Source of the DNA: Nanobdellota archaeon
Lineage (GTDB): Archaea > Nanobdellota > Nanobdellia > Pacearchaeales > GW2011-AR1
DNA length: 63,491 bases
Assembly: GCA_018817405.1 (NCBI GenBank)
Contig: JAHITZ010000032.1
Span: forward strand, 1 to 63,491
Direction: 5' to 3'
Shown here one piece after another: positions 6,987-50,480 of the stretch. The first letter of the stretch is position 1; every line of letters starts with the position of its first letter. A program made the translations under genes and the position numbers. The notes below the pieces were generated by a model. That model was not told the origin of the DNA. It ran no database searches and worked only from the letters and a program-made list of their open reading frames with translations.

Positions 6987-7322
6987 CTAATCTCCAGAAA
7001 GGGTTCTTTCTAAATTCTTAAAACCTTCTCCTAAATAATAAGCATCTTCATTAGACAAACCAATTATCAGCAGAGACATTCTGTGGTCATCGAAGTTTAA
7101 ATGTCTACAAGCTTTCCAATGACAATAAGCCTCCAGCGGCCTCATTCCAGCATGTAATTTAAATTCTCTCTGTTGCTCTTCTCTTGTCTGAGAGCTATCA
7201 ACCCATCCTAAACTTTCTGCATAATCTATTGCTTCATCTGAAACATAGGGTTCTTCCGCTAACATCCCCTCAAGCATGCTATCCATTATCAAAGAAGGCG
7301 CATCAAATTCACCACATTCCAT
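6987..7322 (-). CDS. Orphan ORF with atypical composition, acidic, 111 aa
   Basis: ORF next to tRNA-Glu; shares LERTLS-D and CxnCR motifs with ORF 30173-30412. Confidence 0.4.
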   Translation of the reverse strand: MECGEFDAPSLIMDSMLEGMLAEEPYVSDEAIDYAESLGWVDSSQTREEQQREFKLHAGMRPLEAYCHWKACRHLNFDDHRMSLLIIGLSNEDAYYLGEGFKNLERTLSGD

Positions 7323-7975
7323 AGCATATAATCAAATAGAACCCTATATAAAAATTATCGCAACACAGTTAATCGATTTCAGAAAGATTTAAATACGGAA
7401 ATGGTTGAGCGTTTTTATGGATCCAGAAAAAATGTACAAATTGAATGTAATATACTCGCCTACAACACCCAGAGGAGAAAGTGATAGACTAATTAAGCAG
7501 TCTAGCAGAGGACTTCAATATTCTTTATTCAAATAATGTTTTACCAGAAGATGCTGAACCAAGAGATAGGGTGGGTGCACAAAGAGCGATGGCAGAGCGA
7601 GGTGCAGCTTCAGGGTTTCCAATGGGGGTTGTACGATTTGGAGCCTTGCCTTATGACCAATTTAGAAGTTTAACACTCAGGGTGATGGATGAATTGGATG
7701 TTAGATCGTTGGATCCAAGTCCGATTAGTTAGTAATCAAACCGATAAAAGTAATTACTGAAAAAATTATTACCAAGCTTAAAACCCTCAAAGACTTCATC
7801 TAAATTACTCCAAACCCCCCAATACCAGAGCAATTATTATCGCAATCCCTAAAATCCATAATATAATACCTATCCAATTATTTTTATTCGCTATTCCATT
7901 AATTAACACTAAAACTATTTAATCTTTTCTCCGCTTGCGCAGAAACAAATATGTTGATTCTCACTCAAAACCCCT

Positions 7976-10150
7976 TTACTGATTCTCACTCAAACCCTTC
8001 CTCTCGCGAATTTTCTTAATCACGTTCGGCTGTAATTCAGCAGGCATTTTCTGAAAAGTCTGGTCCATTAAGCTAGAAATACCGCGACCTTCTGTTGCAG
8101 ACCGTAGGTCATTGCTCCACCCAATCATTTCTGCAACAGGTATTCTTGCTTGAATCACAACACTTTCTGATTCTTGTTGAACATCTAGCAACTCTCCTCG
8201 TTTAGAGCTGATTAACTGCGTCACAGTCCCCATAAATGAAACCGGAGCTTCAACTCTGTGGGTTTGTATTGGTTCTAATAAAGCAGGCCCTGCTTTGCTC
8301 ATTGATTCATGTATCCCTTTTCTAACAGCAGGATAAACCTGCGCCGGTCCGCGATGCATATGGTCAACGTGAATTTTCGCATCATGCAATATAACTTTTG
8401 TTTTCATCAACGGCTCTTTTGACAAAGGACCTCCATTAACAATCAGCCTCCAACCATCCATAATTGAATCTATGAGTTCTCCGAGTAAAACAATCCCCCT
8501 TGTCCTGTCTTCAAAAACATTGCCTTTGTAAATCTCTTTTATCTGACGAGCTTCTTCATTTGACATGCCCACTTCAGCAAGTTTTGTCCAGGCCTGCTCA
8601 GCTCTTTTCTTCATCCTTTCTTCTGGTAACTCTCCAGAAACAATTGCATCATAAACATCATCTTCCAATGGCTCAATACTAAAAAACAAGATGTTGTGTC
8701 CATTAGGCGTTCTGCTCTCAACCATAGGACTATCTTTTGTCACAGTTTCTCTATAAACAACAATCGGCGAACCAGTTTTAACAGCCAGCCCTTTTTCACT
8801 TTTTATTCTGTTTTCAATAACCTCCAAATGCAGTTCTCCCATTCCAGACATCAGATTTTCACCAGTCTCTTCATTAATTTCAATTTTTATATCTGCATAT
8901 TCTTTAGCAATTTGTCTTAATATTTCAACAAGTTTAGGTAAGTCAGCTGGCTTTGTTGCTTCAATACTCTTTGTAACAACTGGCTCAAAAATATGTTTAA
9001 TAGATTCAAATGGTTCCATCGCGTCAGAACTTACTGTCTCGCCAGCAAAAACATTTTTTAAACCAACAATACCAACAATGTTCCCGCCGACAACTTTGTC
9101 CATTTGTATCCTCTTTGCCCCCTTGTAAATAGAAACTTGCTGTAAGTTCAGCCTTTTCTTTGCCTGATTCATATAAACAGAATCACCCTGCTTTAGTGTT
9201 CCAGAAAACAATCTTCCTGCTGCAATCTCGCCTGCGTTTTTGTCAATTACAACTTTAGTGCAGATAAACGCCGGCTCTCCTTTTTCATTACAATTAACTA
9301 AGTCTTGTCCTGTCTTGCTGTCTAAATCCCCGTGCCAGATTTTTGGTATTCTATAAGGCTGAGCTTCTTTTGGAGAGGGGTGGTGGTGCACAACCATGTC
9401 AAGAATAACCTTGTGCAATGGTGCTTTTTTAGCTAACTCTTTGTGAGCATCTTCTTGAGAATTATACGCTTCAATTACATCTTTAAATGTTATACCCTCC
9501 CTTTGCATAAATGGAAGACTTAAAGCCCAGTTATGATACGCAGAACCAAAACCAACACTTCCTTCTTGGACATTGACCTGCCACTTCTCCCCGTACCCTT
9601 CTTCTGCAATATGTTTAATTAACTCGTTAACTTTATTGATTATACTAATAAAACGCTCCTGCATTTTTTCAGGAGTCAATTTAATCTCACGAATTAAGCG
9701 GTCAACTTTGTTGATGAACAAAATTGGTTTTACTCTTTCGCGAAGAGCCTGTCTTAAAACAGTTTCTGTTTGAGGCATGATTCCCTCGCTTGCACAACAC
9801 AAGACAATTGCTCCGTCAACAGCTCTCATCGCTCTTGTAACATCTCCTCCAAAATCAACATGCCCCGGAGTATCTATGAGATTAATTAAATAACCCTCTC
9901 CTTCTACATTGTGAACCATTGAAACATTTGCAGCATCAATTGTAATTCCTCTTGTCTGCTCGTCCTCATGAAAATCCAATGCTAGTTGTTTTCCAGCCAG
10001 TTCCTCAGACATCATCCCCGCCCCAGCCAATAGGTTATCTGAAAAAGTTGTCTTCCCGTGGTCAATGTGCGCAGCTATTGCTATGTTCCTAATCTTCTCT
10101 GGCTGAGACATTAGCTTTGTTACTTTTTCTTCTGTTTTATCTGTTGGCAT
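7976..10150 (-). CDS. fusA: Translation elongation factor aEF-2
   Basis: 724 aa; IRNIAIAAHIDHGKTT, DTPGHVDF, diphthamide-region HRGPAQ. Confidence 0.95.
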   Translation of the reverse strand: MPTDKTEEKVTKLMSQPEKIRNIAIAAHIDHGKTTFSDNLLAGAGMMSEELAGKQLALDFHEDEQTRGITIDAANVSMVHNVEGEGYLINLIDTPGHVDFGGDVTRAMRAVDGAIVLCCASEGIMPQTETVLRQALRERVKPILFINKVDRLIREIKLTPEKMQERFISIINKVNELIKHIAEEGYGEKWQVNVQEGSVGFGSAYHNWALSLPFMQREGITFKDVIEAYNSQEDAHKELAKKAPLHKVILDMVVHHHPSPKEAQPYRIPKIWHGDLDSKTGQDLVNCNEKGEPAFICTKVVIDKNAGEIAAGRLFSGTLKQGDSVYMNQAKKRLNLQQVSIYKGAKRIQMDKVVGGNIVGIVGLKNVFAGETVSSDAMEPFESIKHIFEPVVTKSIEATKPADLPKLVEILRQIAKEYADIKIEINEETGENLMSGMGELHLEVIENRIKSEKGLAVKTGSPIVVYRETVTKDSPMVESRTPNGHNILFFSIEPLEDDVYDAIVSGELPEERMKKRAEQAWTKLAEVGMSNEEARQIKEIYKGNVFEDRTRGIVLLGELIDSIMDGWRLIVNGGPLSKEPLMKTKVILHDAKIHVDHMHRGPAQVYPAVRKGIHESMSKAGPALLEPIQTHRVEAPVSFMGTVTQLISSKRGELLDVQQESESVVIQARIPVAEMIGWSNDLRSATEGRGISSLMDQTFQKMPAELQPNVIKKIRERKGLSENQ

Positions 10151-10256
10151 TTTGACTTTTAATTCTAATAAATTAGAATAAATGGTGATACAAATTTGAG
10201 TTTTTAAAGTTTTACTTATGCGAAAAGATTATTAATTCAAGATTCCTAAAGAAACA

Positions 10257-10514
10257 ATGGTGCGGGCATTCATAGATATCAGACCAGGAGACACTATTTC
10301 TATCAAGCCAAATAATTTAGAGCTAATGATTTTAAATTCAAATAGCCAAACCCTGAATCTACAAATATCTGGCGGGAGAAAGTTATCAATACCAGAAGGA
10401 GCAAACGCTCATCTCTCAACAGGCATATCACTGCACAACTATGGACACAGGGGCATGGGGAAGGCATATCACATAAGATTAACTTGCACACCAATAATCC
10501 CTTATACAAGATAA
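10257..10514 (+). CDS. Hypothetical small protein
   Basis: 85-aa ORF, no recognisable motif. Confidence 0.3.
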   Translation: MVRAFIDIRPGDTISIKPNNLELMILNSNSQTLNLQISGGRKLSIPEGANAHLSTGISLHNYGHRGMGKAYHIRLTCTPIIPYTR

Positions 10515-10607
10515 CAAGAACCCGCAAGGGAAAAGCAAATAATGTGGGGCTTGGATAAATCACAAGGTTTCGATAACTCTTTTAAACCCAGTTTCCTCAA
10601 CAGACAT

Positions 10608-11864
10608 ATGGCATTTTTCGATTTTTTAAGACGTTCCAGTAAGAAAGAAGAACAAAAACAATTAGAAGAAATAAATCTAAATGAAATTCCTGATTGGATA
10701 GGTTCTAAATCAAATAAGATATTTGAGAATCTAGACTCTGAATTTGAAGAAATAAGAGAGAAAATATCTCAAGAAAAAATAGCTCTCAAACAAAATCTTA
10801 AAAATCTAGAACAAGCAGAACTCAAGAATAAGGATATTCCTGATAGAATGAAGCAGATAATGGAAGGAAACAGGAGAATATATGTCCATAAAATTAATAG
10901 TTTTATAAGAAAAATTAATTTTCCTAGCGACACTGATGAAGCTTTAAACTTCGCAGTTTCTTTTGATTCAGAATTAGATAAGTTTGATAAAAGCATAGGG
11001 AAAAGCCACAACATCCTGGAAGAATTTTTCCCTGAAAAAGCAAATCTTGTCTCAACAAACGTGAAAAATATAGACAAATTAGTCAAAGAGGCAAAATCTA
11101 AAATAAAAAATTCTGAGGTTGAAAAAGTAAACGAACTAAAAAACCATGTTTCTTCAACATTAAATAAAATAAAACAAAAAGAAGAAGGCCATAAAAGGTT
11201 AAAACTGCTTGAAGAAGATTTGAAATTCCATAAGGAAACAATAAACAATAAGGAAAGTAGGTTAGAACAACTCCAACAACAAGAGACATACAAGAAAATA
11301 ATAGAGTTAATGGAAACGAAAGAACAACTAGAACAGAAAATTAAAGAAAACGAATCTAAATTTGTACATTCTTTTTCAGAGATTGAGACAGCCCTTAAAA
11401 AATATGAAAACCTCTCGGAAAATAAACTGGCAAAAAGATATTTGGAAGATTCTTTAAATGCTTTGCTAGGAGATAAGGATTTGGAAATTTTAGGCTTGTT
11501 AGATGCAATAAAAAAAGCAATTGCAAGCGGAGATATCACCTTGAAGGACAAAAAGAAAGATAAGGTGATAAAAGAATTGGACAGCCTAGATAAAGATTAC
11601 ATTGAAAGTTTCTTGCAAACTCACACAAACTCAAATAAAGACCTCTCTGAATTAGATTCTAAAATTAGAAGTTCCAATATCCTCAAAGAGATTGAAAATC
11701 TCAAGGATGAATTAAAACAAGACAACACAAATCTTGAAAAAGACAAGTTCAAGATAGGTAAGATGAAAAAAGAGACAGAGGGGATTGATGTTTCTCAGTT
11801 AATTTCAGGACTTGAAGACAAAATTAGAGAGAATACAGGAGAGGAAGTTAAAATCAACAATTAA
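10608..11864 (+). CDS. Coiled-coil protein (K/E-rich)
   Basis: Start placed at internal Met MAFFDFL; long heptad-like K/E/L/N-rich sequence. Confidence 0.6.
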   Translation: MAFFDFLRRSSKKEEQKQLEEINLNEIPDWIGSKSNKIFENLDSEFEEIREKISQEKIALKQNLKNLEQAELKNKDIPDRMKQIMEGNRRIYVHKINSFIRKINFPSDTDEALNFAVSFDSELDKFDKSIGKSHNILEEFFPEKANLVSTNVKNIDKLVKEAKSKIKNSEVEKVNELKNHVSSTLNKIKQKEEGHKRLKLLEEDLKFHKETINNKESRLEQLQQQETYKKIIELMETKEQLEQKIKENESKFVHSFSEIETALKKYENLSENKLAKRYLEDSLNALLGDKDLEILGLLDAIKKAIASGDITLKDKKKDKVIKELDSLDKDYIESFLQTHTNSNKDLSELDSKIRSSNILKEIENLKDELKQDNTNLEKDKFKIGKMKKETEGIDVSQLISGLEDKIRENTGEEVKINN

Positions 11865-12463
11865 CGAGCACTATCTGCTTGTTTCTCTGCCTCGTTCTTT
11901 TTTGAAAGAGCATAACTTTCCATATTCCCCTCTGAAGCTTTGATTATCTCCTCAGCAAGTGATTGTACCATCTTCTTTTTCTTTCCAAAACATCTTTGAT
12001 ATGCTCCCTGAACCATCCATCTCAACGCAAGGTCAACCCTTCTTGTAGGAGAAGTGTCAATTGCCTGTGGATATCTTGCTCCACCATGTTCAATAACAGT
12101 GATTTCGTCTCTTGGCGAACAATTTTCAATCGCAGTCACAAGAATCTGGACAGCATTTTTCTTTGTTCTTTGTTCAATAAGATTCATTACCTCTATCACA
12201 GTAACCATATTTTTGTTATACTTTCCAGAAGCCCAGCTTGTAATTATTTTGTGCCTCTTTCCGACATGTCCTGGTGTTGCAATCCTATTTGCAAGTCTCT
12301 CTAAGATATTCACTCTTGCCTTGCCAAACTTCCCAACATTCCTCCCCTGCGACTTCAAAAGCAACTTTGGTTCAACATTTATATAAGGCTTCAAAGCAGG
12401 ATCCTTTATCTCAATGTCAGAGACATCAAATATGTCGAAGAGTTTTATTTCTTGTTCAGCCAT
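11861..12463 (-). CDS. rps7: 30S ribosomal protein S7
   Basis: Start at MAEQEIKLFD, preceded by GGAGG; conserved S7 core (RVNILERLANRI, ENCSPR). Confidence 0.9.
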   Translation of the reverse strand: MAEQEIKLFDIFDVSDIEIKDPALKPYINVEPKLLLKSQGRNVGKFGKARVNILERLANRIATPGHVGKRHKIITSWASGKYNKNMVTVIEVMNLIEQRTKKNAVQILVTAIENCSPRDEITVIEHGGARYPQAIDTSPTRRVDLALRWMVQGAYQRCFGKKKKMVQSLAEEIIKASEGNMESYALSKKNEAEKQADSAR

Positions 12464-12683
12464 CCGCAATCCTCCTTGTTTTTTTATATTTTTTCCCAGC
12501 AGGAGTAAGCTTAACGCGCGGAACAGCAGAGTCCACAAACACTTGTGCATAACCTGTTGTTGTTAATTCTCCCTGAACCCTATCATACACATGGGCATCT
12601 AAACCACTAAAATCTACATGTCCCCCATTGTCATAAGCTTTTGATACAATTTCTTGTGTCGCGTCACTTAATTCTCTTGTCAT
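12456..12683 (-). CDS. Orphan ORF (75 aa) inside the rps12-rps7 operon
   Basis: TAA-A-ATG junction with the upstream ORF; overlaps the rps7 ATG by 8 nt. Confidence 0.5.
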   Translation of the reverse strand: MTRELSDATQEIVSKAYDNGGHVDFSGLDAHVYDRVQGELTTTGYAQVFVDSAVPRVKLTPAGKKYKKTRRIADG

Positions 12684-12684: not shown

Positions 12685-13026
12685 TTATCTCATCTCCTCC
12701 AACTTAATCCCACATTCTTCAAACATTTTTAAAACTCTCTCAACTCTCACATCTGGATTTCCCAAACTTTTAGTATTAACACAAAGCACACATCTCTCTG
12801 CTTTACCATCCAAACCAATAGGCTCTCTTGTATGAAAATGTGGTGGATTTTCTTCTAATTCTAAACCATTATCTTTACGCAAACTATAATGCTGTACACC
12901 ATTCAAATATTTTCCTCTGGCAACTTTTCCTGATCTATTCAATCTTTCAAACAAATCCTGCATGCCCTCGCTATCTGCAAGAAAACAATATACAGCATCT
13001 TTAATCGTTTGAGTTCCAGTTGTCAT
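12685..13026 (-). CDS. Orphan ORF (113 aa from the internal ATG) inside the rps12-rps7 operon
   Basis: TAA-A-ATG junctions on both sides; contains PPHFHTREP and CVLC. Confidence 0.5.
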   Translation of the reverse strand: MTTGTQTIKDAVYCFLADSEGMQDLFERLNRSGKVARGKYLNGVQHYSLRKDNGLELEENPPHFHTREPIGLDGKAERCVLCVNTKSLGNPDVRVERVLKMFEECGIKLEEMR

Positions 13027-13027: not shown

Positions 13028-13378
13028 TTACGCCGGGACCTCTGCCGCTCGGCTTTGAGATTGTGCAGATTCCACAATTCTTTTCAGTTTAGCTGAAAAG
13101 CTCAAAGAGGATCTATCCTCAGGACAATAAACATTGGCTGTGTACTGAGTGCCAACTCGCACCCCCTCATTGCCATAACCAGACACTGATTCAGATAATA
13201 AAAAATACTCTCCCCCCAATGTCAGTGCAGTTACTCTGGGAGTTGTCTCCAAATCGGTTGAGTGAACAATTTTCCTATGTTTAGTCCCACGAATAAATTC
13301 CCCAACGCCCGCTACAACTGCCTCAATCATTAGACCATCATAACTTCTCACATTAACTCCCTCAAATTGATTCCACAT
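13028..13378 (-). CDS. Orphan ORF (116 aa from the internal ATG) inside the rps12-rps7 operon
   Basis: TAG-A-ATG junction with the rps12 stop. Confidence 0.5.
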   Translation of the reverse strand: MWNQFEGVNVRSYDGLMIEAVVAGVGEFIRGTKHRKIVHSTDLETTPRVTALTLGGEYFLLSESVSGYGNEGVRVGTQYTANVYCPEDRSSLSFSAKLKRIVESAQSQSRAAEVPA

Positions 13379-13840: not shown

Positions 13841-14059
13841 TTAACGAACCTTCCCTTCATTCTTTCTAATCGCTCTTAAAATCCAAACAACAATCCAAGT
13901 GACAATTATCAGCCCAAGAGCAATAGGGCCATAAAAAGAGATGTAAAGAGCCATCCCCAGATTCACCCCAAATACGAACGCTCCATAAATCAAGAAACCA
14001 AAAAACAATAAAACTACAATCACACTAATAATCCAGCCAACTTTAATCTCATTTTCCAT
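13841..14059 (-). CDS. Small two-TM membrane protein
   Basis: 72 aa, host-like composition; TAA-A-ATG junction with the nusA stop. Confidence 0.5.
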
Positions 14060-14477: not shown

Positions 14478-14865
14478 GTTAAACCTTTTTAAGAATACTT
14501 CCTTTCACAACTATCCTTTTTCAATGTAGTTTATAAATTTATCTCTTCTTTACTGCTTTGTTAAATAAGTGGTGTTTGTTAAAAAAGCCGATTCCTGAAA
14601 TATTGAAAATAAAGAGTCAAGCCAGATAAAATTATAGTTGTTATTGCTAAAACCCAAGTAGCCCATACGAGCCTTATATTTGTTCTTTCAATTCTATAAG
14701 CAATATATGATTGAAATACTTTATCATTCAGGGTATTTATTTCTATTAAATCATTATTTTGTATTTTAGGGTTTTGTTTTTTAGCATTTTCCCTTTCAAT
14801 GTAAATAGCAATTTTTTTGTAATCTTTAAACCATCTTTTAAAACTCAGTGTATACTTCCTACCAC

Positions 14866-17800
14866 TTAACTTTTCTTCCCTTCATCTTTCCTAACCAAAG
14901 GCCCAGTCACTTTAACCAGCAAACCAGGCAAGCCAGTGCCAACAGGAATTGGCTGGTTCAATAAAATATTTTCAATCACAGATTTCAGTTCGTCTTCAGA
15001 ACCTTTAATTGTTGCATTAACAAATTGCTTATCTGGTGTTTCAAAAGTCGCCCGTGCCAAAATACTTGCTTTATCAGTTATGATTCCCATTCTTGTCACA
15101 CCTTTAACAGTTCCCGAAGAAGTCATAGCATCTGCTACAAGAGTCAAATGCCTTTTGTTAATGTCAAGTCCCTGGGTTTCAATAACATTTTTAATTTCAT
15201 TTATTATTGTTTGTCTTGCCGCCTCTATTCCGAGAATTTCTTTCACGTCGTGGATATCATTAGAAAAAACTTTATCTCTGTTAATCCCTTTGACCTCTAA
15301 GGTCTCCATAAGGTTGGAGCCACTTGTGAGAATAACATACTCTCTGTCTTTCTTAGAAACAACGACCTGGGGCACGCCCTTAATTCCAGAAACAACTATC
15401 TCTTTTAACTTCTCCTTTAGTTTATACATTTCTTTGAATCCATGTTCTGGAAGAGCAATAACGATTCTCATACCACTCAGCGTAGCTTTGAATTTTTTAT
15501 CTGTTAATTTATCTGCAACTTTTTGTGGGCCGATGTGGGCACCTTTTAACGCCTTTGAATCTAACTCTATTTCTATTTTATTATTCCCAAAATCAATATT
15601 TATCTCTGAGAGGATTTCTTTGAGCTTGACCTCTTTTATCTTTTCTGCTATGACTCGGGCATTCTTTTCATTATTATTCTCTCTGTCAAGATAAATTTCC
15701 ATCATTGGAGTAGATGGTTGTTTCCTAGCATCTAAAATTTCTATTAATCTTGGTAAACCAAGTGTAACCTGCATTTGAGCAACACCAGCCATATGGAATG
15801 TTCTAAGTACCATCTGCGTGGATGCCTCTCCAAATGATTGTGCAGTAATAACGCCCACAGCCTCTCCTGGAGAAATTTTGTCGTCTTTTAAGTGCAGCTT
15901 AGCAACATCTTTTCCGTCCTCTCCATAACTAAATTGAACAATATTTTCAGAAGCATCTCTCACCGTGCCGTCATATTCAACTTTCAAATCCTGCAGCGCA
16001 CTAACAAGTCTTCTGTACAAATAACCAGATTTTGGAGTCCTTAAAGCAGTGTCCATCAATGCGTCTCTTCCGGTAATCGCCCCGAAGAAGAACTCGCTTG
16101 GCTTCAATCCTTTAAGAAAACTGGACTTGATGAATCCTCTTGCTTCTGGTTTCAAATCATTTTTCTTGAAGAAAGCCAATGTTCTATCGCTATAACCAAA
16201 GCTAATTCTCTTGTTCCACAACGACTGCTGGCCAACACAACAACCCATCTGAGTAACATTAAGCATGCTTCCGCCGCTGCCTGACTTTATCATCTTATTA
16301 ATACTGCCTTCTGCAGGGAAATGGGACTTCACAACATCACTGACATCTGTTCTCACACTGTTAAGGATTTGCATTATCTTTGTTTCACGAGTTTCTTCCA
16401 TTGTTTTCCCAGGCATAGACTCCAATCTGTCTGCTTCATAATCTTCAATAACCTCAAGAGTTTTTTTCTCAGCTTTAGCTATAATCTCTTTAGTGATTTC
16501 CTTGACTTTTTCAGGGACATCTAAGTCGTGTAAGGACAAAGTGTATCCTTTTCTAGATAAATACACAGTTCCCAGTGTAAATGCCTTACTGATAGAATCA
16601 ACTGCGATCTCTCTTCCAAATTCTTTGTCTATTAACTTGACCATTTCCCCGTCTTCTGCTCCAAATGTATTGCTTCCGTTTATCGTTCCAGGAATGCTGA
16701 TATTAGAACCCTTTGGAATTACCTGTGAAAACACATCAATTCCAGAAACTTCTTTTTTCTTGACATTGTTGATTATATTTAAAGAAAACAACAGTTGGTC
16801 TGCTTCGCTTTTTTCAACAGTGTCTTTTCCTAAAAGATAAGCTCCGGTGACAGCATCTGCAATTGTTCCAACAAGGTTTGTGTTATTTTTGGATGATATA
16901 ATGTTGTTGTTTATATCCAAAAGCACTTTTGCTTCAGACAGCGCTTCTTCATTTTGAGGACTATGTATATTCATTTCATCTCCGTCAAAATCTGCGTTGT
17001 AAGGAGCTGCTGCTGCAGGGTTCAATCTAAATGTTCTTCCTGGAAGAACTTTTACATAATGTGCCATCAGCCCTTGCTTATGCAATGTGGGGTGCCTGTT
17101 GAACAGAACTATGTCTCCGTCTCTTAAGTGTCTCTCAACTTTATATCCTGGCTGTATCTCTGCAACTATTTCTTCTTTCAAATCTTCAGTAATGCGTTTC
17201 CTCCTTCCGTCTATCCTTATCACGTTGTTTACTCCAGGATATGCTGTTCCGTTTCTGATTAAATTCTTTATCTCTTCAATATTGGTGCTTGTGACAGATT
17301 CAGCTACTGTAATGACTTCTGCGATTTGCTGTGGCACTCCGATTTCATTAATTCTCAGGTAAGGGTCTGGCGAAATAACACTTCTCGCAGAGTAATTAAC
17401 CCTTTTTCCTGCAAGGTTGTGCCTTATTCTGCCCTCTTTTCCTTTAATTCTTTCAGTGATTGTTTTTAATGGCTGTCCAGAACGGTGCCTTGCAGGAGGT
17501 ATCCTCGTGACATTGTTATCAAAAAAAGTTGTAACATGATATTGCAATAAATCCCAAAGGTCTTCTATAATAACTTCTGGAGCTCCGGCATTTAGATTTT
17601 CCCATAGTCTTTGGTTGGCTCTTATAATATCACTCAATTTATGAGTCAGGTCATCTTCACTTCTTTCCCCTGTGTCAAGAGTGATTGACGGCCTTACAGT
17701 AACAGAAGGAACCAGCAATAACGAGATAACTGCTCTTTCTGGTCGTGCCGAATGAGTATTTATTCCTATTCTTCTTAGTTCTTCATCAGGGATATTAACA

Positions 17801-18297: not shown

Positions 18298-18563
18298 TTT
18301 TTCCTCTTCTCTAATTTATTTTTCAAATCATCAAAGTCTTTTTTTACTTTAACAAAAGACATCTTAACTTCATGCTTAAATTCTTTTGTTTCATCACTAA
18401 TCGCCCAGACCTTAAATATCAAAGTCAGAAACAAGACTATAACAATGCTAAGTTCTGTGGGGCTGTTGCCAAATATTCTCCAAATTACCAATATAACTGC
18501 AATTATCAATGTAATCCAAAATAATATATTAAGTATTTGTCTTTTGTTCATTTTATTGATCAT
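18294..18563 (-). CDS. Small membrane protein encoded between rpoB and rpoA
   Basis: 89 aa, two TM helices plus a K/E-rich tail; overlaps the rpoB end by 11 nt and the rpoA start by 4 nt. Confidence 0.5.
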   Translation of the reverse strand: MINKMNKRQILNILFWITLIIAVILVIWRIFGNSPTELSIVIVLFLTLIFKVWAISDETKEFKHEVKMSFVKVKKDFDDLKNKLEKRKK

Positions 18564-22288: not shown

Positions 22289-22657
22289 CTAACCTTTCGC
22301 CCTAGTTTCAGCAGGGATCGTCACATGAGATTTATCATAAAAACGTATTTCAACAGAAAAATCTAATCCATCAATAGAAGGGGTTCTCACGCTTCTTGGA
22401 GTTTCTCCGAGCTCAACAAGCCCCCCCCACAGTATTTGATCATTTGGAGTGTAAGCTGCTGCCCCATGTTGCCTGCTTGACACCATATGGCTAATTATTC
22501 CTCTTTCAACTTTTTCAAATGAAGTTGCTAAATCATGCCCTCTTGCAGAAACAGGCAGTTCCAAACATTCTGCAACTATATAATTGGGAGGGTCTCCTTC
22601 ACCAACATCAGATCTGTACGAAACAACCCTAAACACTTCAGTCACTCTACTAACCAT
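22289..22657 (-). CDS. Orphan ORF with atypical composition, 122 aa (weak HicB/UPF0150-like N-terminal pattern)
   Basis: YIVAECLELPVSARGHDLATSFEKVERGI loosely resembles the HicB-type Y.A..PELPG....G.T.EEA pattern. Confidence 0.45.
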   Translation of the reverse strand: MVSRVTEVFRVVSYRSDVGEGDPPNYIVAECLELPVSARGHDLATSFEKVERGIISHMVSSRQHGAAAYTPNDQILWGGLVELGETPRSVRTPSIDGLDFSVEIRFYDKSHVTIPAETRAKG

Positions 22658-24195: not shown

Positions 24196-24462
24196 ATGTC
24201 AGAAAGAAGAGGATTAGGATTTTTTGAAACTGTCTGTGCAGTAGTAGTTGGAGCTTCATTAGCGACAATTCCAGACTACGTCAGACAAGGAAACATAGAG
24301 AATAAAGTTGACCAATTACTTCAAAGACCCGCAATTGAATTAAGAACAGAAAATGTTATTGGTGGAAATGCACCTGAGAAATTCTATGAAATTGCTGGGA
24401 AAAGAGTATATTTAGAAATAGATGGTCAACCAGTAGATAACTATGTTCAAAATAGAGAATAA
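24196..24462 (+). CDS. Small protein with a type IV pilin-like N-terminus
   Basis: AGGAG 8 nt upstream of the ATG; MSERRG-LGFFETVCAVVVGASLA gives basic residues, Gly, Glu at +5 and then a hydrophobic helix. Confidence 0.4.
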   Translation: MSERRGLGFFETVCAVVVGASLATIPDYVRQGNIENKVDQLLQRPAIELRTENVIGGNAPEKFYEIAGKRVYLEIDGQPVDNYVQNRE

Positions 24463-24645: not shown

Positions 24646-24647
24646 AT

Positions 24648-30172: not shown

Positions 30173-30412
30173 TTAGGCTTTGTTTTTCATATCTTTAATG
30201 AATTTAGCCACCCTTCTCCTTTTTTCAGGCCATCCCTTTTCGTCTTCTGATAATGTCCTCTCGAGCAAAATAAGAAATCGAACCTCTTCACGACAAGGTT
30301 CACAGATTTGAGTAACATGTCTAGCCAAATCCGGCGCCGTTTCAGGACTAAATCCAGTTAAAGCTTGTAATTCACGGTCAGAGTCATAGTCTCCCCTTTC
30401 ATAATCGTTCAT
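30173..30412 (-). CDS. Orphan ORF (79 aa from ATG; frame stays open 43 codons further upstream, to the repeat edge)
   Basis: No stop between 30413 and 30541 in this frame; shares motifs with ORF 6987-7322. Confidence 0.4.
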   Translation of the reverse strand: MNDYERGDYDSDRELQALTGFSPETAPDLARHVTQICEPCREEVRFLILLERTLSEDEKGWPEKRRRVAKFIKDMKNKA

Positions 30413-35027: not shown

Positions 35028-35468
35028 TTATTTAATTCTATTGCCCCCTCTATCAAAAATACCCGTTATACTCTCAAAGTTAACGTGATATTCTCCATGT
35101 TTAGCGTAACGGTATTGAGTAAACGAGTCGTCTACGTTTACTGAAACACTAAAGCCTGGTTCAATCATAGAGTCTGCTTTAGCTGAATGACTAGTTAATA
35201 AGATGGTTTCTGTACCTGCTCCGGTTCGTAGCGAAAAAATGTAAGGAGAAGAGTTTCCAAAAGGACCCTGGGCTGAATGGAAAGGTATCTCTGCTATGAC
35301 CTTACCAGAAACAATGGAAGATGGTCTTGAGATAGAATGGTCGGCAGACACGTTTTTTCTTCGAGAATAGTCGACAGATAAGACTGTAAAAGTACATAGA
35401 AAACCTGTTAGCGCAACAGCGCCCAGTGTGACCACCAACTGTTTCAAACCATCTAATTGTTTTCTCAT
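35028..35468 (-). CDS. Membrane-anchored orphan protein, 146 aa
   Basis: N-terminal TM VVTLGAVALTGFLCTFTVL; remainder S/G/T-rich, no family recognised. Confidence 0.45.
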   Translation of the reverse strand: MRKQLDGLKQLVVTLGAVALTGFLCTFTVLSVDYSRRKNVSADHSISRPSSIVSGKVIAEIPFHSAQGPFGNSSPYIFSLRTGAGTETILLTSHSAKADSMIEPGFSVSVNVDDSFTQYRYAKHGEYHVNFESITGIFDRGGNRIK

Positions 35469-36549: not shown

Positions 36550-36587
36550 ATTATAATGATTAGAATGGAGATTTATTAAGTTTGTGT

Positions 36588-36920
36588 TTAGTATTGAAAG
36601 CCAACTTGCGCAACACCACAGATTACATTGCAAGTGTTGCCGAATATTTCTTCGCGGATTGTGTGGGCGATTAATGTTCTTCCTTTTAATTCCTGCAAAG
36701 AGCCAATACATAAATAAGACAAAAGTCCTTGGATTCTGTTTTTTGTAAATGATGTTGGGCCTTGATAGTGCTGGTTTCTTAGATATAATCCGATTCGTCT
36801 TGTGAAACTCTTAACCTCAACAACCCTTACGCGATGAAGAGATGTTGGACTTGCCATGATTCTCTCTCTATCAGGGTTTTGAAAACACCATTCTGAAGGA
36901 TAAAATCTTTCTTTGGTCAT
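36588..36920 (-). CDS. Orphan ORF, 110 aa
   Basis: ORF upstream of the MBL gene, atypical composition. Confidence 0.3.
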   Translation of the reverse strand: MTKERFYPSEWCFQNPDRERIMASPTSLHRVRVVEVKSFTRRIGLYLRNQHYQGPTSFTKNRIQGLLSYLCIGSLQELKGRTLIAHTIREEIFGNTCNVICGVAQVGFQY

Positions 36921-37010: not shown

Positions 37011-37096
37011 GCGGGGGTGCCAGAGTCCGGTCAAATGGGCTAGCTTGAGGGGCTAGTGGCTTAGTGCCTGCCAGGGTTCGAATCCCTGCTCCCGCA
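37011..37096 (+). tRNA. tRNA-Leu (GAG), no intron
   Basis: Acceptor GCGGGGG/CTCCCGC; anticodon stem CTAGC/GCTAG with loop TTGAGGG; long variable arm; T loop TTCGAAT. Confidence 0.85.
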
Positions 37097-38130: not shown

Positions 38131-38829
38131 TTATACTCTCCTCCCCCTTCTTCCGCCTTTTTTCTTTGGGCCTCCCCGAGGAACTTTTGTTGTGTCTAGT
38201 ATGCTTATGATGTCAAAGCCTGCCTTGCCAAGACTTTTTACTGCAGAATTTGTACCAGGCCCGTGTCCAAATCGTGTTTTTCCTTTCATTCTTACATACA
38301 GTCTTGTAAAACCTAAATCGCGAGCTCGCTCTGCAGCCCTTTTAGCGACGAACATTGCAATTGTTGGATTTGCTTTTAATCTCGAGTGTTTTGTAATCAT
38401 TCCTCCTGAAACTTTTGAGATTGTACTGCCTGAAAGGTCTGTTATGTGGACTCTTGTGTTGTTTGAGGAGCTTGAGATGTAAGCGATTCCTGTTTTGTCT
38501 TCTTTCCTTTTTGTTTTGGATTCTGTTTTTTGTGGTGTAACTTTTTCTTCTTTAGGTTCTTTTTTCTTCTTATCAACTATTTCTGCAGCAACTTCCTCGG
38601 CAACTTCTTCAGCTACTTTCTCCGCAGCTTCTTCTTTTTTCTTCTTATCAACTATTTCTGCAGCAACTTCCTCGGCAACTTCTTCAGCTACTTTCTCCGC
38701 AGCTTCTTCTTTTTTCTTCTTAGTTTTGGTCTCAAGAGAGGTTGGAATCTTTTTTTCTATTTCTTCTTCTACAATTTCCTTGATTTCTTCCTTTACTTTC
38801 TTCTCAACTTTTTTCTTTTCTTCTGGCAT
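38131..38829 (-). CDS. rps11: 30S ribosomal protein S11 with an N-terminal K/E/A-rich extension of about 100 aa
   Basis: C-terminal 130 aa are a canonical S11 (GIAYISSSSNNTRVHITD...GRRGRRV). Confidence 0.9.
   Translation of the reverse strand: MPEEKKKVEKKVKEEIKEIVEEEIEKKIPTSLETKTKKKKEEAAEKVAEEVAEEVAAEIVDKKKKEEAAEKVAEEVAEEVAAEIVDKKKKEPKEEKVTPQKTESKTKRKEDKTGIAYISSSSNNTRVHITDLSGSTISKVSGGMITKHSRLKANPTIAMFVAKRAAERARDLGFTRLYVRMKGKTRFGHGPGTNSAVKSLGKAGFDIISILDTTKVPRGGPKKKGGRRGRRV
38566..38715. repeat. Perfect 2 x 75-nt tandem duplication inside the rps11 5' extension
   Basis: 38566-38640 and 38641-38715 read identical; encodes KKKKEEAAEKVAEEVAEEVAAEIVD twice. Confidence 0.85.
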
Positions 38830-39119
38830 TATGCTGCTTCCTCTAGTTTACTTACAGAAACGTAAAAATTATGTTCTCTTAGATTTGGTAAAACTGGATC
38901 TTCATTAAATCTTTGAGTTGCTTCGTTGGGAGTAGAGTTGAAAAATACAATTGCTTCTGTCTTATCACGAGTCGAATTATAAGGCATTGCCCAATCATAT
39001 CTTTGTCCAGGGATTAATTGACCGATTGATAAGTTCTGTGCGCTTCTTAATCCTCTTCTTTCTACCACAGACCTAAAAGCATTGTCCACCATAATTAGAT
39101 TTGGATTAAAGGTTGCCAT
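38829..39119 (-). CDS. Orphan ORF (96 aa) between rps4 and rps11
   Basis: TAATG stop/start overlaps on both sides; shares motifs with ORF 39855-40187. Confidence 0.5.
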   Translation of the reverse strand: MATFNPNLIMVDNAFRSVVERRGLRSAQNLSIGQLIPGQRYDWAMPYNSTRDKTEAIVFFNSTPNEATQRFNEDPVLPNLREHNFYVSVSKLEEAA

Positions 39120-39727: not shown

Positions 39728-39854
39728 TTTATGTTTTGGTTAGTAAATTTAAATTGTTATAATCTGTATTGAAAGAACGATTATCTAAAAAAATAAATGG
39801 TTTGGATAAATAATATTTGACTTTTATTTTATTTGATTTTGTCATTTTAACTTA

Positions 39855-40187
39855 TTACACTCCTCTCCTCAATTCTGGAAACATTTGTTCAAGAGATTTT
39901 AACTCTTGGTATGGTGGTATGAGTAACTTCAAATAATGCTGTGGGCGGGCTCCGAGAGCTACATCTCGCACCATACTTCGAAACGTTCCTCTTGCGTTGT
40001 TATAACGAGGCAGTGCTTCTACAAATAAACTACTTGATGCTAGCTGTTCGGCCTGCATCATATTAGCCTCAAAAACAGAGAGATGAAAATTATGATGTAC
40101 CAAGTTAGAACTTATTGGCTCCCCTACAAACTCGCAGTTTACTGCTGTTACATTTCCCCTTTCTTCTGTTGTCATTATTGCTACCAT
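39855..40187 (-). CDS. Orphan ORF (110 aa from the internal ATG) between rps13 and rps4
   Basis: TAA-A-ATG junction with the rps13 stop; motif sharing with 38829-39119 and 40700-40966. Confidence 0.5.
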   Translation of the reverse strand: MVAIMTTEERGNVTAVNCEFVGEPISSNLVHHNFHLSVFEANMMQAEQLASSSLFVEALPRYNNARGTFRSMVRDVALGARPQHYLKLLIPPYQELKSLEQMFPELRRGV

Positions 40188-40699: not shown

Positions 40700-40966
40700 T
40701 TATTCTGTTTGCCCTCTTGCTTCATTGTAAGCTTGTCGTGCAGCGTTATAGCGGTTTCCTAATTCTAGGGCTGTTCCTTCTGAAACGCCTGCTGCTTTTT
40801 GTCTAACAATATAGGATTTTAATTCGTTTAGGTGGCTTGAAGCGGAGGCAAGAGACAGTGTTGCGCGCTCAGAGGCACCTAGCTTAGCTGAATACGTTGC
40901 ATTAGCACAAAGATTTTCAACTTCGGCGGCCATTTGGTCTGCTTTTCTTAATTTGCCTTTTCCCAT
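40700..40966 (-). CDS. Orphan ORF (88 aa, predicted helical) upstream of rps13
   Basis: TAA-A-ATG junction with rps13; A/S/L/N/E-rich. Confidence 0.45.
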   Translation of the reverse strand: MGKGKLRKADQMAAEVENLCANATYSAKLGASERATLSLASASSHLNELKSYIVRQKAAGVSEGTALELGNRYNAARQAYNEARGQTE

Positions 40967-40972: not shown

Positions 40973-41251
40973 CTACACCCCCCTCTCTTCGATATACGAT
41001 TCAACAGCCTGAATAGAATTATCTGCTTGTAAGTAAAAGGCCTCAATATCTGCATTAGACGTTAAACCCTCGCTTTCTTCTCCGTATACTTCTAAAATGG
41101 CCAGTTGCCATCCTGCACCATCCACAAACATAGTTGCATTACAAAATCTTCCTTCATTAGCATGTTGTCTGGCAAGTCTACAAGTTCTTGCCATACCCTC
41201 TGCGGCGTCTCTTGCGTTTGCTATTAATATTTTATTCCTTTCTTCTCCCAT
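40973..41251 (-). CDS. Orphan ORF (92 aa)
   Basis: Starts 2 nt after the DUF655 stop; C-NAT motif shared with 40700-40966. Confidence 0.45.
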   Translation of the reverse strand: MGEERNKILIANARDAAEGMARTCRLARQHANEGRFCNATMFVDGAGWQLAILEVYGEESEGLTSNADIEAFYLQADNSIQAVESYIEERGV

Positions 41252-42102: not shown

Positions 42103-42471
42103 TTATTCTTGTACCTCTATTAATTCTTCACCAAGTAATCTTGAGAGGTCTGCTCTTACTCTTTCAACTTTGTCTTGTTCCCCAATTAAACTTGCTTCTG
42201 GATGATATTGTTCCCCTCCACAAAAAACTCCTGTAACCCCTCCTATAGAATGTAGCACACTTATGCATGATTCTATATAATCTGGAATGGTATGTATCCC
42301 ATATCCCCTCTCGAGAGCTTCGGTTCCAACTCTCTTTTTCTCTATGAAAAATATACTCCAAATATCTTTACCTCTTAATTCATATTTTTTTGTTACTATC
42401 CCTTCTCCTGTTTGTGTTTCTGTTCCTTGAACTGGAATCCTCGGGAACGTTTCTCCAGGTTCTACTGACAT
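42103..42471 (-). CDS. Orphan ORF (122 aa) between rpl21e and rpoF
   Basis: ATG embedded in the last codons of rpl21e; TAA-A-ATG junction with rpoF. Confidence 0.45.
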   Translation of the reverse strand: MSVEPGETFPRIPVQGTETQTGEGIVTKKYELRGKDIWSIFFIEKKRVGTEALERGYGIHTIPDYIESCISVLHSIGGVTGVFCGGEQYHPEASLIGEQDKVERVRADLSRLLGEELIEVQE

Positions 42472-43582: not shown

Positions 43583-43728
43583 TAAATAAATCGCTAAATT
43601 CGCTATCCTCCTGGCAAGACCATTGGGTATTTGCCGCGAATTTCCAAGACGCGATTTCTAATTTTCTTTTTGAAAAAACGCGGCAAGACTGCGGGGTATC
43701 AAACCCCAAAAAGAAAATGAATTAATAA
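43583..43728 (+). repeat. Hairpin-rich repeat family B, copy 1 (long form)
   Basis: Near-identical to 48929-49074; nested stems AAATCGC/GCGATTT, AATTCGC/GCGAATT, ATTTTCTTTTTG/CAAAAAGAAAAT, GGGG/CCCC; GGCAAGAC occurs twice. Confidence 0.8.
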
Positions 43729-45420: not shown

Positions 45421-45678
45421 TTGCTACCTACGAGAAAGAAAACTGCAAGTAATAGAGCGACAGAATTAGGCTCTGCTAGATATAGAACAAGGCATAAGAT
45501 ATGTGTGTTTAGTGCGCAATATGTTGATAGACCAGAAGAACTCACTTCAGAAAATCACAGTTATAATTCCTCAAGAGTTTTTACAGAAGGAGTAGAAGTT
45601 ATGGTTGATAAAAATTCAGGAGAGTTATATGTTGAGGGAAGAGGGCTGATGATCAAGTTTCAGACTATTCCAAATTAA
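45421..45678 (+). CDS. Questionable orphan ORF (TTG start)
   Basis: 85 codons, non-ATG start, atypical composition. Confidence 0.25.
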   Translation: MLPTRKKTASNRATELGSARYRTRHKICVFSAQYVDRPEELTSENHSYNSSRVFTEGVEVMVDKNSGELYVEGRGLMIKFQTIPN

Positions 45679-45700: not shown

Positions 45701-47650
<1,950 letters not shown>

Positions 47651-47654
<4 letters not shown>

Positions 47655-48928: not shown

Positions 48929-49074
48929 AATAAAGAAATCGTTAAAATTAACTATCCCCATGGCAAGACACTTGGGTATTTGCCGCGAATTTCCAAGACG
49001 CGATTTCTAATTTTCTTTTTGGAAAAATTCGGCAAGACCGCGGTGTATCAAACCCCAAAAAGAAAATTATAATT
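48929..49074 (+). repeat. Hairpin-rich repeat family B, copy 2 (long form)
   Basis: Aligns with 43583-43728 by eye. Confidence 0.8.
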
Positions 49075-49549: not shown

Positions 49550-49687
49550 ATGCAAAAAATAACAAAAAGTTTTCGAGTTGAGCCAAAACTTTGGACAGAG
49601 GTGAAGGTTTACTGTGCTGGACAAAACCTTGATTTGTCCTCTTTCCTTGAAGACGCTCTGAAAGAGAAACTAAAGAAGGCAAAATAA
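49550..49687 (+). CDS. Possible ribbon-helix-helix (CopG-like) mini-protein, 45 aa
   Basis: ATG at 49550, TAA at 49685; FRVEPKLWTEVKVYCAGQNLDLSSFLEDALKEKL resembles an RHH strand-helix-helix. Confidence 0.35.
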   Translation: MQKITKSFRVEPKLWTEVKVYCAGQNLDLSSFLEDALKEKLKKAK

Positions 49688-49710
49688 ATTTAGGTGATGG
49701 GAAGTATATA

Positions 49711-49968
49711 ATGAAAAATCAGATTATTTCAAAAGAACCTATTACAATATGGATTCGAGGATATGATAAAAGAGTTGTCGAACAACCATATTTGTTGAGG
49801 GCAACCAAAGTGGAATTAATGGGAAATGAGCTATATTTTTGTCTAAAAAAAGAATTAATCTTTAAAATTTGGCTTAAAGAAGAAAAATGGAGAAGCTACA
49901 AGAATATCAACGAAGCCCTAAAAGATGTGGATATTGAGGTTATAGGCAAAGACACTCTTAACTACTAA
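49711..49968 (+). CDS. Hypothetical small protein
   Basis: 85-aa ORF downstream of the RHH-like ORF. Confidence 0.4.
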   Translation: MKNQIISKEPITIWIRGYDKRVVEQPYLLRATKVELMGNELYFCLKKELIFKIWLKEEKWRSYKNINEALKDVDIEVIGKDTLNY

Positions 49969-50240
49969 AAAGTCATACGAAGAAATTTTAAAGGATTACT
50001 ACGATATTTTAAAGAGTTTAGCAAAATGAAAAAAGAAGATAAAATCAAAAAATGCAAGAGAATCTTGAAGCAAGTTGAGAAAGAATTAGCAGAGTTCAGA
50101 GACAAGAAAAAATGGTTTGAAAGGGAACGTGAAACCTATATTAAAAATCTGAAAAGCGAGATTAAGAAATTAGAAAAGAAAAAGTAACAGACTTTTTTTA
50201 CAAGGACTAGTTATTAAACAAAGCATATGCTTTTGAATTA

Positions 50241-50480
50241 ATGCGTGAGCGAGAAGAACCGACATTAAGGGAAAGCTTAAGAGTTATTGGAAGGCAATGC
50301 GTGCTTAAACCTCTGCAATATGTATATACTACCGGAGTGGCAGTACTTTATGTTGGTGCCAGATTACTTCTTTGTGATGACCGCGACCCTGCCAGACCAA
50401 TTGATGATTTTATGACTGTCTTTGAGGCCGGAAGACCCAATTGTCAAGATTTGCATTTACTTTCTCACGAACTAAAGTAG
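50241..50480 (+). CDS. Orphan ORF whose last 12 codons are supplied by repeat A copy 3 (likely truncated gene)
   Basis: The C-terminal CQDLHLLSHELK-stop is encoded within the repeat 50443-50515. Confidence 0.3.
   Translation: MREREEPTLRESLRVIGRQCVLKPLQYVYTTGVAVLYVGARLLLCDDRDPARPIDDFMTVFEAGRPNCQDLHLLSHELK

Follow-up and report, generated by a model that had tools for sequence, protein, structure and literature searches.

Candidate lineage-restricted genes in core-operon stop/start junctions of a DPANN archaeon

Core operons of the window and the small reading frames at their junctions

The window analysed here, the whole 63.5-kb stretch of contig JAHITZ010000032.1 (GC content 37.4%), belongs to a Pacearchaeota/Woesearchaeota-type DPANN archaeon that is labelled 'Nanoarchaeota archaeon' at NCBI, and it carries 15 small open reading frames (ORFs) that an initial annotation had singled out as a compositionally atypical class embedded in core operons. 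Pieces of the window are contained in GCA_018812805.1 and in a Logan assembly at 99.96-100% identity, and an S4-based search of the genome collection returned metagenome-assembled genomes of Pacearchaeota, Woesearchaeota and Nanoarchaeota as the closest relatives. Three classical archaeal core operons are present, all on the minus strand of the window:

Operon 1, minus strand: rpoH-rpoB-rpoA ... NusA-S12-(insert)-S7, with EF-2 further on
Operon 2, minus strand: L21e-(insert)-RpoF-DUF655-(insert)-S13-(insert)-S4-(insert)-S11-RpoD
Operon 3, minus strand: GroES-(insert)-GroEL

All 15 ORFs lie at the coordinates and on the strands originally assigned to them, each with an ATG start and with the annotated frame alone open. 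Ten of the 15 occupy stop/start junctions of these operons; the occupied junctions are S12/S7 (three ORFs), L21e/RpoF, DUF655/S13 (two), S13/S4, S4/S11 and GroES/GroEL. The ORFs in and beside the operons are listed below, together with a mini-ORF absent from the initial annotation. Lengths are in amino acids (aa), the codon score is the per-codon log-odds under a codon model trained on recognisable host genes, and GC1, GC2 and GC3 denote GC content at the three codon positions.

13028..13378, minus strand: 116 aa, 1-nt gap after S12, first of three S12/S7 inserts; codon score 0.20, K 3.4%
12685..13026, minus strand: 113 aa, second S12/S7 insert, 1-nt gap on each side; codon score 0.34
12456..12683, minus strand: 75 aa, third S12/S7 insert, stop overlapping the S7 start by 8 nt (ATGGCTGA)
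42103..42471, minus strand: 122 aa, L21e/RpoF, start overlapping the L21e end by 10 nt, 1 nt before RpoF; codon score 0.37
40973..41251, minus strand: 92 aa, first DUF655/S13 insert; codon score 0.37, K 1.1%
40700..40966, minus strand: 88 aa, second DUF655/S13 insert, 1 nt before the S13 start MAAPNQ; codon score 0.29
39855..40187, minus strand: 110 aa, S13/S4, 1-nt gap after S13; codon score 0.07 (weak), GC1-GC3 0.23
39729..39845, minus strand: 38-aa K/N-rich mini-ORF, 9 nt after 39855, TAAaATG before S4
38829..39119, minus strand: 96 aa, S4/S11, 1-nt overlap on each side; codon score 0.19
47313..47654, minus strand: 113 aa, ATGA overlap with GroES, 1-nt gap to GroEL
22289..22657, minus strand: 122 aa, 34 nt after thioredoxin, 49 nt before an intron-containing tRNA (22142-22239), upstream of rpoH-rpoB; codon score 0.29

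The initial annotation held that most of the small ORFs fill the space between genes exactly and use the coupling grammar of native gene pairs, and this was found to be true of ten ORFs and not of the free-standing ones. Distances from the ten junction ORFs to their neighbours are -10, -8, -4, -1, +1, +1, +1, +2, +6 and +9 nt; the typical junction reads TAAaATG or ATGA, with a Shine-Dalgarno (SD)-like GGAGG within the last codons of the upstream gene. The junction ORFs are co-oriented with the flanking core genes and leave no space for a promoter of their own, and 42103 has its own GGAGG as well as ATAAAATG on both flanks. Embedding in core operons is likewise narrower than had been claimed, in that 6987, 30173, 35028, 36588 and 50241 lie outside them and 22289 belongs only loosely. 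Judged by overlaps or short spacers, co-orientation and the upstream SD-like motif, the junction ORFs appear to be translationally coupled genes. Termination-reinitiation coupling needs overlaps or very short distances and collapses at distances of ~20 nt, and among tightly coupled pairs, genes for heteromeric-complex subunits are over-represented (PMC10666635). The mini-ORF 39729-39845, which completes the S13/S4 junction and is uncalled in public annotations, is a candidate coding ORF. The same insert arrangement was recovered in independent NCBI, Logan and JGI assemblies, and the inserts are called as genes in other assemblies of the same population, as was seen for 40973 in independent assemblies.

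Coding signal, composition and homologues

At the GC content of the window, a stop codon is expected with a probability of 0.067 per codon, and a given frame stays open by chance with P = 5e-3 over 75 codons and P = 4e-5 over 146 codons. Under the codon model the annotated frame ranked first in 15 of 15 ORFs, with per-codon log-odds of 0.07-0.37 compared with -0.06 +/- 0.13 for 52 shadow ORFs located inside real genes (Mann-Whitney p = 2e-8), so that the earlier judgement that chance ORFs are unlikely is upheld for the ORFs as a set. GC1 exceeds GC2 and GC2 exceeds GC3 in all 15, and the difference between GC1 and GC3 (0.10-0.35) is larger than that of host genes. This periodicity, GC1-high and GC3-low, belongs to the ORFs' own frame, and on that ground we rejected the idea that they arose as frame-shifted or antisense copies of host genes. 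A coding signature is thus present in periodicity, in codon score and, for the three families in which it could be measured, in a ratio of nonsynonymous to synonymous divergence (dN/dS) below 1.

The signal is not uniformly strong. It is weakest in 35028, 36588, 39855 and 50241, whose scores overlap the top of the shadow-ORF range (maximum 0.22), and it is in these weak scores that the case for an annotation or assembly artefact, whether chance ORFs or chimeric contigs, resides. In addition, 36588 has the lowest periodicity of all (GC1-GC3 = 0.10) and overlaps the long form of ORF 35971-36711, while 50241 ends inside a dispersed repeat. Such an explanation could hold for 36588 and 50241 only; the recovery of the same arrangement from independent NCBI, Logan and JGI assemblies, the low chance probability of each open frame, the coding statistics far above those of shadow ORFs and the existence of orthologs (30-67% identity) that keep length and position refute it for the ten junction ORFs, and as a general account we find it hardly credible.

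The composition of the ORF products had been described as rich in G, A, V, R, S and T and poor in K, I and N. We found a narrower shift: relative to the host level K is reduced to 0.41x and I to 0.60x and R is raised to 1.70x, whereas A, G, V and S stand at ~1.2x, T at 1.07x and N at 0.85x. R/(K+R) is 0.64 against 0.30 in the host (p ~1e-7 to 1e-8), a difference that also holds against other small ORFs. Net charges lie between -14 and +7, mostly at -1. The ORFs are native in nucleotide GC, in GC3 and in synonymous codon usage, the last correlating with that of the host at r = 0.905, with slightly fewer C-ending codons. Three origins of this composition were considered and rejected. Recent transfer from a GC-richer donor is contradicted by the native synonymous usage and GC3 and by the absence of donor homologues. 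A coding-strand A-to-G mutation bias, which might turn K into R and I into V, would affect third codon positions, and because these are unaffected the K-poor, R-rich composition is not attributable to mutation bias. Finally, a random-sequence or de novo-like composition does not fit E, A, G and D at ~1.5-3 times the random expectation, the composition as a whole being farther from random than from host.

To place the ORFs among known proteins, eleven were compared by HMMER phmmer with 1.84 billion representative proteins. Homologues were obtained for five of the eleven (12456, 13028, 12685, 22289 and 47313), at most three for each and with E values from 2e-19 to 2e-4; 30173, 38829, 39855, 40700, 40973 and 42103 returned none from the same set. 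Profile searches of 5.8 billion proteins yielded no convincing new member, the one extra match covering 26% of the query and looking spurious. All homologues with readable genomic context are on DPANN/Nanoarchaeota contigs, and the ORFs are indeed lineage-specific, as had been proposed. Four homologue families with readable context keep the same junction (after S12, before S7, between GroES and GroEL, and in the trx-rpoH region), and positional orthologs in relatives thus exist for four families. In the following, homologous proteins carry P numbers and the loci of relatives L numbers.

The family of 13028 has its sole homologues among the 5.8 billion proteins in P0018, P0020 and P0021 (30-46% identity), each encoded directly after S12 (L099, L100 and L101) and all with the common motif PRVTA.T..G..FLL.E; an AlphaFold2 (AF2) model of this family was poor, with a predicted local distance difference test score (pLDDT) of 50, and unfit for structure search. 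ORF 12685 has one homologue, P0023, at 31-34% identity (E = 2e-4 in the whole library, 9e-15 pairwise) on a 537-nt contig. The ortholog of 12456, P0016 (67-70% identity), takes the same place in L104-L106, where the order is S12, 85 aa, 72 aa, S7. ORF 47313 has the homologues P0017, P0019 and P0022 (35-45% identity), whose genes all lie between GroES and GroEL (L097, L108 and L109), and the AF2 model of this protein is a small beta-barrel with a pLDDT of 78.7 overall and 80-94 over residues 10-90. When this model was searched with Foldseek, only generic similarities to SH3/Tudor/KOW/eIF5A-like small barrels were returned, and these were non-significant (E > 0.09). ORF 22289 has the homologue P0024 (36-39% identity) in the syntenic trx...rpoH region of L102. 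By-eye impressions of 12456 as a winged helix and of 22289 as HicB-like were borne out by no test and were dropped.

No Pfam, PHROG or PADLOC family was matched above threshold by the ORFs, PDB sequence profiles likewise gave no usable match, and most inserts are single genes; assignment to toxin-antitoxin or anti-phage defence systems finds no footing in PADLOC or Pfam. Although the ORFs form a class in the sense of common composition and size, all-against-all BLAST and phmmer comparisons revealed no sequence kinship among them except a weak likeness between 38829 and 39855, on either side of S4, through NL.EHNF.VSV (Smith-Waterman z = 5.1, BLAST E = 0.027). A putative insert superfamily defined by an N-terminal 'MTTQ...SRE' and a C-terminal 'C..KgIP' was rejected, with hhalign probabilities below 10% and jackhmmer non-convergent; the MT(T)Q start is found in native genes too, for example in S7 of L099, and probably reflects a preferred start context, ATGACAAC. 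The proposal of a dispersed multi-component system finds no support, since the genes are unrelated to one another and close relatives hold different subsets of them rather than the whole set. The products may rather be heterogeneous small soluble domains, with at least one predicted beta-barrel, that constitute neither one family nor one system.

Rates of change were estimated as Nei-Gojobori dN and dS for inserts and their flanking genes, with dN/dS measured in the three families that have usable orthologs (13028, 47313 and 12456) and dS saturated in most comparisons. Homologous inserts are 30-70% identical, whereas the flanking genes are 77-94% identical.

13028 family: insert dN 0.58-0.81, S12 dN 0.07-0.08; dS saturated in both; dN/dS ~0.2-0.3
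47313 against L108: insert dN 0.57, GroES and GroEL dN 0.10-0.11; dS 1.66 against 1.1-1.2; dN/dS ~0.34
47313 against L097: insert dN 0.69, flank dN 0.06-0.12; dS saturated or near-saturated
12456 against P0016: insert dN 0.26, flank dN 0.06-0.11; dN/dS 0.56

Overall, insert dN is 0.26-0.81 compared with 0.06-0.15 in the flanks, or 3-12 times the flanking value, and dN/dS is about 0.2-0.55. These values indicate that the measurable families are under relaxed purifying selection, evolving faster than their neighbours and yet not neutrally. The 13028 and 47313 families fit vertical inheritance, since their dS is saturated like that of the flanks and their position is constant. In the 12456/P0016 pair the proportion of synonymous differences (pS) is 0.35 (confidence interval 0.23-0.49; 72 codons), against 0.63 for S12 and 0.77 for S7.

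Turnover at the junctions and its explanation

Scanning metagenomes with the DUF655 protein yielded 80 loci (71-90% identity); with the genome loci added, 44-73 relatives could be scored per junction. Between 80 and 99% of the relatives' junctions are tight (-4 to about +6 nt), and inserts longer than 150 nt are found in 1-20%; L21e/RpoF is tight in 53 of 58 relatives and DUF655/S13 in 55 of 66. The junctions are also tight in loci of Micrarchaeota, Parvarchaeota, Methanosarcinales and Asgard archaea. Because the junctions are tight across relatives and in other archaeal phyla, we take the compact operon to be ancestral and the inserts to be derived. Insert-bearing loci cluster mainly in the clade of the window on a single-protein neighbour-joining tree, which is indicative only. 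Within that clade the load is uneven, with five of five junctions occupied in L021, four of six in L019, three of five in L003 and three of four in L017, and none of four in the sister locus L018. GC content showed no significant link with insert load (p = 0.09). Inserts in relatives are likewise short, mostly 80-130 aa, and poor in K (R/(K+R) = 0.55) and, a few exceptions aside, they have no sequence kinship with the window's own inserts.

The pace of change can be seen in the close relative L108, which matches the window at 84-89% identity in its core proteins: its GroES/GroEL gene is orthologous to 47313 (39% identity), DUF655/S13 holds an unrelated 103-aa ORF, and L21e/RpoF is empty. Gain, loss or replacement at junctions thus occurs between relatives that still share 84-89% identity in core proteins. 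In relatives with a core dN of 0.15-0.24, insert rates of the order reported above would erase all likeness even between orthologs, and most same-junction pairs therefore cannot be assigned to orthologs or to independent gains. Some relatives carry several ORFs at one junction: L097 has three (118, 112 and 121 aa) between GroES and GroEL at 2903-3966, and L003 has five (75-283 aa, 2.1 kb) between S11 and RpoD at 4883-7036, one of which, L003_5996, is clearly homologous to an ORF at that junction in L029 (E = 4e-19). In L021, the 3' ends of inserts just upstream of S4, S11 and RpoD contain recurring segments of ~50-70 nt with 73-77% identity (9795-9894, 10654-10706 and 11332-11402); these segments yield mini-ORFs with a common C-terminus, ...LNFSGKL(T)K, and could be a repeated junction module.

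On these observations we propose, with a probability of roughly 0.55, that the ORFs embedded in the operons are real accessory protein genes of restricted lineage, which entered the coupling junctions of core operons within a single clade of Pacearchaeota/Woesearchaeota-like DPANN archaea and appear to turn over quickly there. The inserts would be transcribed together with the core operon and translated by termination-reinitiation coupling. In a promoter-poor, highly compact genome, new genes may find expression mainly inside existing transcription units, and a nonsense mutation or an imprecise deletion in an insert would uncouple the essential gene downstream. Because breaking an insert would be polar on that gene, its reading frame and junction grammar would be protected while the protein itself would be weakly constrained. 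Several findings weigh against this proposal. Six of the ten junction ORFs have no detectable homologue among the 1.84 billion representatives, and these could be pure spacers; a K-poor, R-rich and I-poor composition is contrary to relaxed constraint under AT-biased mutation; the low synonymous divergence of 12456 relative to its flanks and the related ORFs at different junctions hint at lateral movement; and the tree behind the clade restriction was built from one protein of 179 aa.

A more austere possibility is that the ORFs are spacers, junk kept open because ribosomes must translate through them to reinitiate downstream, with functionless peptides. The exact filling of junctions with retained coupling grammar, the collapse of coupling at ~20-nt distances (PMC10666635), the extreme divergence that leaves six of ten inserts without a homologue among the representatives, and the unrelated ORFs of similar size (~80-130 aa) at the same junction in relatives would all agree with this, and the mini-ORFs of 38-48 aa in the window (39729-39845) and in L021 resemble decaying fillers. 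However, dN/dS is 0.2-0.55 where measurable and not 1, blocks of conserved motif are present, the GroES/GroEL family has a confident predicted fold and the composition is protein-like. Moreover, a streamlined genome should delete junk, and the clean empty junctions of relatives indicate that precise absence is attainable. We therefore regard functionless spacers as a rather unlikely explanation.

The patchy distribution and the cross-junction likenesses raise the question of movement. Promoter-less units of an SD and an ORF could behave as selfish cassettes that travel between junctions of highly expressed operons, with TAAAATG/ATGA as target or microhomology. The GroES/GroEL insert L025_3641 resembles 38829 from S4/S11 (43% over 37 aa, E = 3.5e-5 to 8e-5, z = 9.2), 38829 is in turn weakly like 39855 from S13/S4, other cross-junction pairs reach z = 6-7, and tandem paralogs are present in L004 and L025. 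The contrast between L017 and L018, the low pS of 12456/P0016 and the presence of ATAAAATG on both sides of the L21e/RpoF insert, where the empty site of L108 has a single AAAATG, point the same way. Against this, 72 codons underlie the pS contrast, native stop/start grammar explains the repeated junction motif equally well, and the 13028 and 47313 families fit vertical descent. Furthermore, same-junction and cross-junction similarity did not differ significantly once clear orthologs were excluded (p = 0.12), and no multi-copy or near-identical copies, terminal repeats, or transposase, integrase or endonuclease domains were found. Mobile selfish cassettes are accordingly unlikely in our estimation. 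A bolder version, in which SD-plus-ORF cassettes are inserted, exchanged and replaced at core-operon junctions with coupling as an addiction mechanism, forming a distributed cassette platform without integrase or attC, seems to us quite improbable.

The strict position of two families, between GroES and GroEL and directly after S12, suggests a further alternative, that the products are lineage-specific subunits or regulators of ribosome, RNA polymerase or chaperonin, made stoichiometrically through coupling in the manner of clade-specific ribosomal proteins of other reduced genomes. The enrichment of heteromeric-complex subunits among tightly coupled pairs (PMC10666635) would agree with this, as would the predicted SH3/Tudor/KOW-like barrel of the GroES/GroEL protein, a shape common in translation proteins, although its matches were non-significant. 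Yet the genes are patchy even among close relatives, and unrelated genes replace each other at the same junction. The products are lysine-poor and near-neutral or acidic, unlike RNA-binding ribosomal proteins, and they diverge at nonsynonymous sites 3-12 times as fast as the supposed partners. In addition, no Pfam or PDB sequence match places them in known ribosomal, RNA polymerase or co-chaperonin families, and the junctions are mostly empty in relatives. As an explanation for the ORFs in general, dedicated core-machine partners are very unlikely.

Further features of the window and comparison with known systems

The remaining ORFs of the initial annotation are free-standing, and two more of the same K-poor, R-rich composition that were absent from it (24196 and 45421) are listed with them:

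6987..7322, minus strand: 111 aa, acidic (net charge -14); codon score 0.30
30173..30412, minus strand: 79 aa, 32 nt upstream of a PD-(D/E)XK-like nuclease gene; codon score 0.29
35028..35468, minus strand: 146 aa, N-terminal hydrophobic helix, TATA-like box ~25-30 nt upstream; codon score 0.07
36588..36920, minus strand: 110 aa, basic, upstream of a metallo-beta-lactamase-fold gene; codon score 0.11; doubtful
50241..50480, plus strand: 79 aa, opposite strand; codon score 0.08; doubtful
24196..24462, plus strand: 88 aa, R/(K+R) 0.70; codon score 0.37
45421..45678, plus strand: 85 aa, convergent on the GroEL 3' end, R/(K+R) 0.62; codon score 0.26

ORF 6987, a singleton cluster, has a TATA-like TTTTTATATA ~25-30 nt upstream of its ATG, and against Pfam it gave only a sub-threshold match to Arch_fla_DE (E = 0.0012, 19.2 bits; cutoff 21 bits). 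The protein cluster of 35028 consists of same-population variants only, and that of 45421-45678 is a singleton. ORF 35028 adjoins a tRNA-like fragment (34886-34920) that is 89% identical to the 5' part of tRNA-Leu (37011-37096), and a 3'-half-like fragment lies at 6779-6818; the tRNAs at 22142-22239 (98 nt) and 63016-63146 (131 nt), presumably intron-bearing, are detected by Rfam and missed by ARAGORN. These fragments and tRNAs could be att-site remnants or split tRNA genes. ORF 24196-24462 is bracketed by a perfect 43-nt direct repeat (23954-23996 and 24513-24555, 559 nt apart), and its flanks at 23950-24140 and 24513-24650 are GC-rich with a long hairpin (GGGCTATACG...CGTATAGCCC) in which Rfam finds nothing; this region looks like a structured RNA gene duplicated or interrupted by an insertion. 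Two dispersed intergenic repeats, each of ~70-190 nt in three copies with 91-97% identity, are present as well: repeat A at 1-147, at 30542-30729 near ORF 30173 and at 50443-50515 (inverted), the last copy being the one that holds the 3' end of 50241, and repeat B at 43596-43718, 48945-49067 and 61319-61398 (inverted). A regulatory element, a small RNA or a MITE-like element (miniature inverted-repeat transposable element) are candidate identities for both.

Small ORFs of ordinary K/I-rich composition that encode membrane proteins are found on the minus strand at 18294-18563 (89 aa, rpoB/rpoA) and 13841-14059 (72 aa, NusA/S12), and since these too are embedded in the RNA polymerase-NusA-S12 operon, the invasion of operons extends beyond the K-poor ORFs. 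The 388 nt between rpoA and NusA (14478-14865, minus strand) hold no ORF with a canonical start, but one frame is open for ~85 codons with a hydrophobic helix at its end (…LVWATWVLAITTIILSGLTLYF…) and could encode a small membrane protein with an unusual start. L30e, which is expected between rpoA and NusA from archaeal gene order, was not seen there. One 1143-aa ORF at 14866-18297 encodes the RNA polymerase large subunit, with the same product at 1142 aa in L102, and appears to be a fused or shortened A'+A'' in place of the two genes usual in archaea. In S11, a perfect 75-nt tandem duplication at 38557-38706 lies in a K/E/A-rich N-terminal extension (repeated AEKVAEEVAEEVAAEIVDKKKKEE).

S12-S7, S13-S4-S11 and GroES-GroEL are among the most conserved prokaryotic adjacencies and serve as fixed landmarks in phylogenomics and binning, and genes such as those described here can be hidden by marker-gene synteny assumptions and by the filtering of 'hypothetical proteins'. 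The clade offers a natural system in which to study how newly arisen genes come to be expressed in the ultra-compact, promoter-poor genomes of symbionts and allows a test of whether translational coupling shelters weakly selected genes, and the GroES/GroEL and post-S12 families are candidate lineage-specific modulators of DPANN core machines.

How do the inserts compare with systems in which small genes appear between conserved ones? Phage morons are alike in being extra small genes between conserved neighbours with patchy presence; they belong to phage genomes and bring a promoter and a terminator of their own. The inserts differ in their 1-nt spacers, their dependence on a host operon, their location on a cellular chromosome and the lack of a PHROG match, and we do not class them as morons. 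Integron cassettes, which have been reported in Archaea also, share promoter-less, mostly orphan and co-oriented ORFs of ~100 aa read from an upstream promoter. Here, however, spacers of 1-9 nt leave no room for attC, the inserts are scattered, there is neither an adjacent integrase nor an attI array, no inverted repeats occur at insert ends, and the sole tyrosine-recombinase-like gene, identified by sequence at 61763-62605, is ~14-49 kb from the junction inserts; they are not integron cassettes by these features. The free-standing homing endonucleases of T4-like phages resemble the inserts in precise insertion between co-transcribed conserved genes and in presence/absence polymorphism. The inserts are half the size and not in phage, and no Pfam match to HNH, GIY-YIG or LAGLIDADG was obtained for the window ORFs or for ten L003 inserts, which does not place them with homing endonucleases. 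Nor does a transposable element or MITE fit, in that the repeat search shows no family covering the inserts and no multi-copy protein family was present; the shared ATAAAATG at the L21e/RpoF insert is ambiguous in this respect.

Gene pairs that undergo termination-reinitiation (Huber et al. 2019, 2023; PMC6728339, PMC10666635) have the same -4/-1 overlaps, short spacers and upstream SD, but they are conserved subunits and not orphan inserts, and the likeness concerns the probable mode of expression rather than gene identity. The closest correspondence is with orphan genes (Vakirlis & Kupczok 2024, PMC11293555), which are alike in narrow lineage, host-like GC and codon usage, fewer C-ending ('optimal') codons, purifying selection and positional orthologs that diverge to or past the detection limit. 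With homologues confined to a narrow lineage, coding sequence and dN/dS values in three families, the inserts fall among orphan genes. They depart from typical orphans in that several are present per universal core operon, in their clade-wide recurrence and in their K-poor, R-rich composition; in the orphan survey ~1,900 of >600,000 orphans were in operon-like arrangements (PMC11293555). We found no earlier description of orphan inserts at core-operon junctions in the searchable literature. Orphan and accessory genes as such are already known, and it is their concentration in universal core operons that is unusual.

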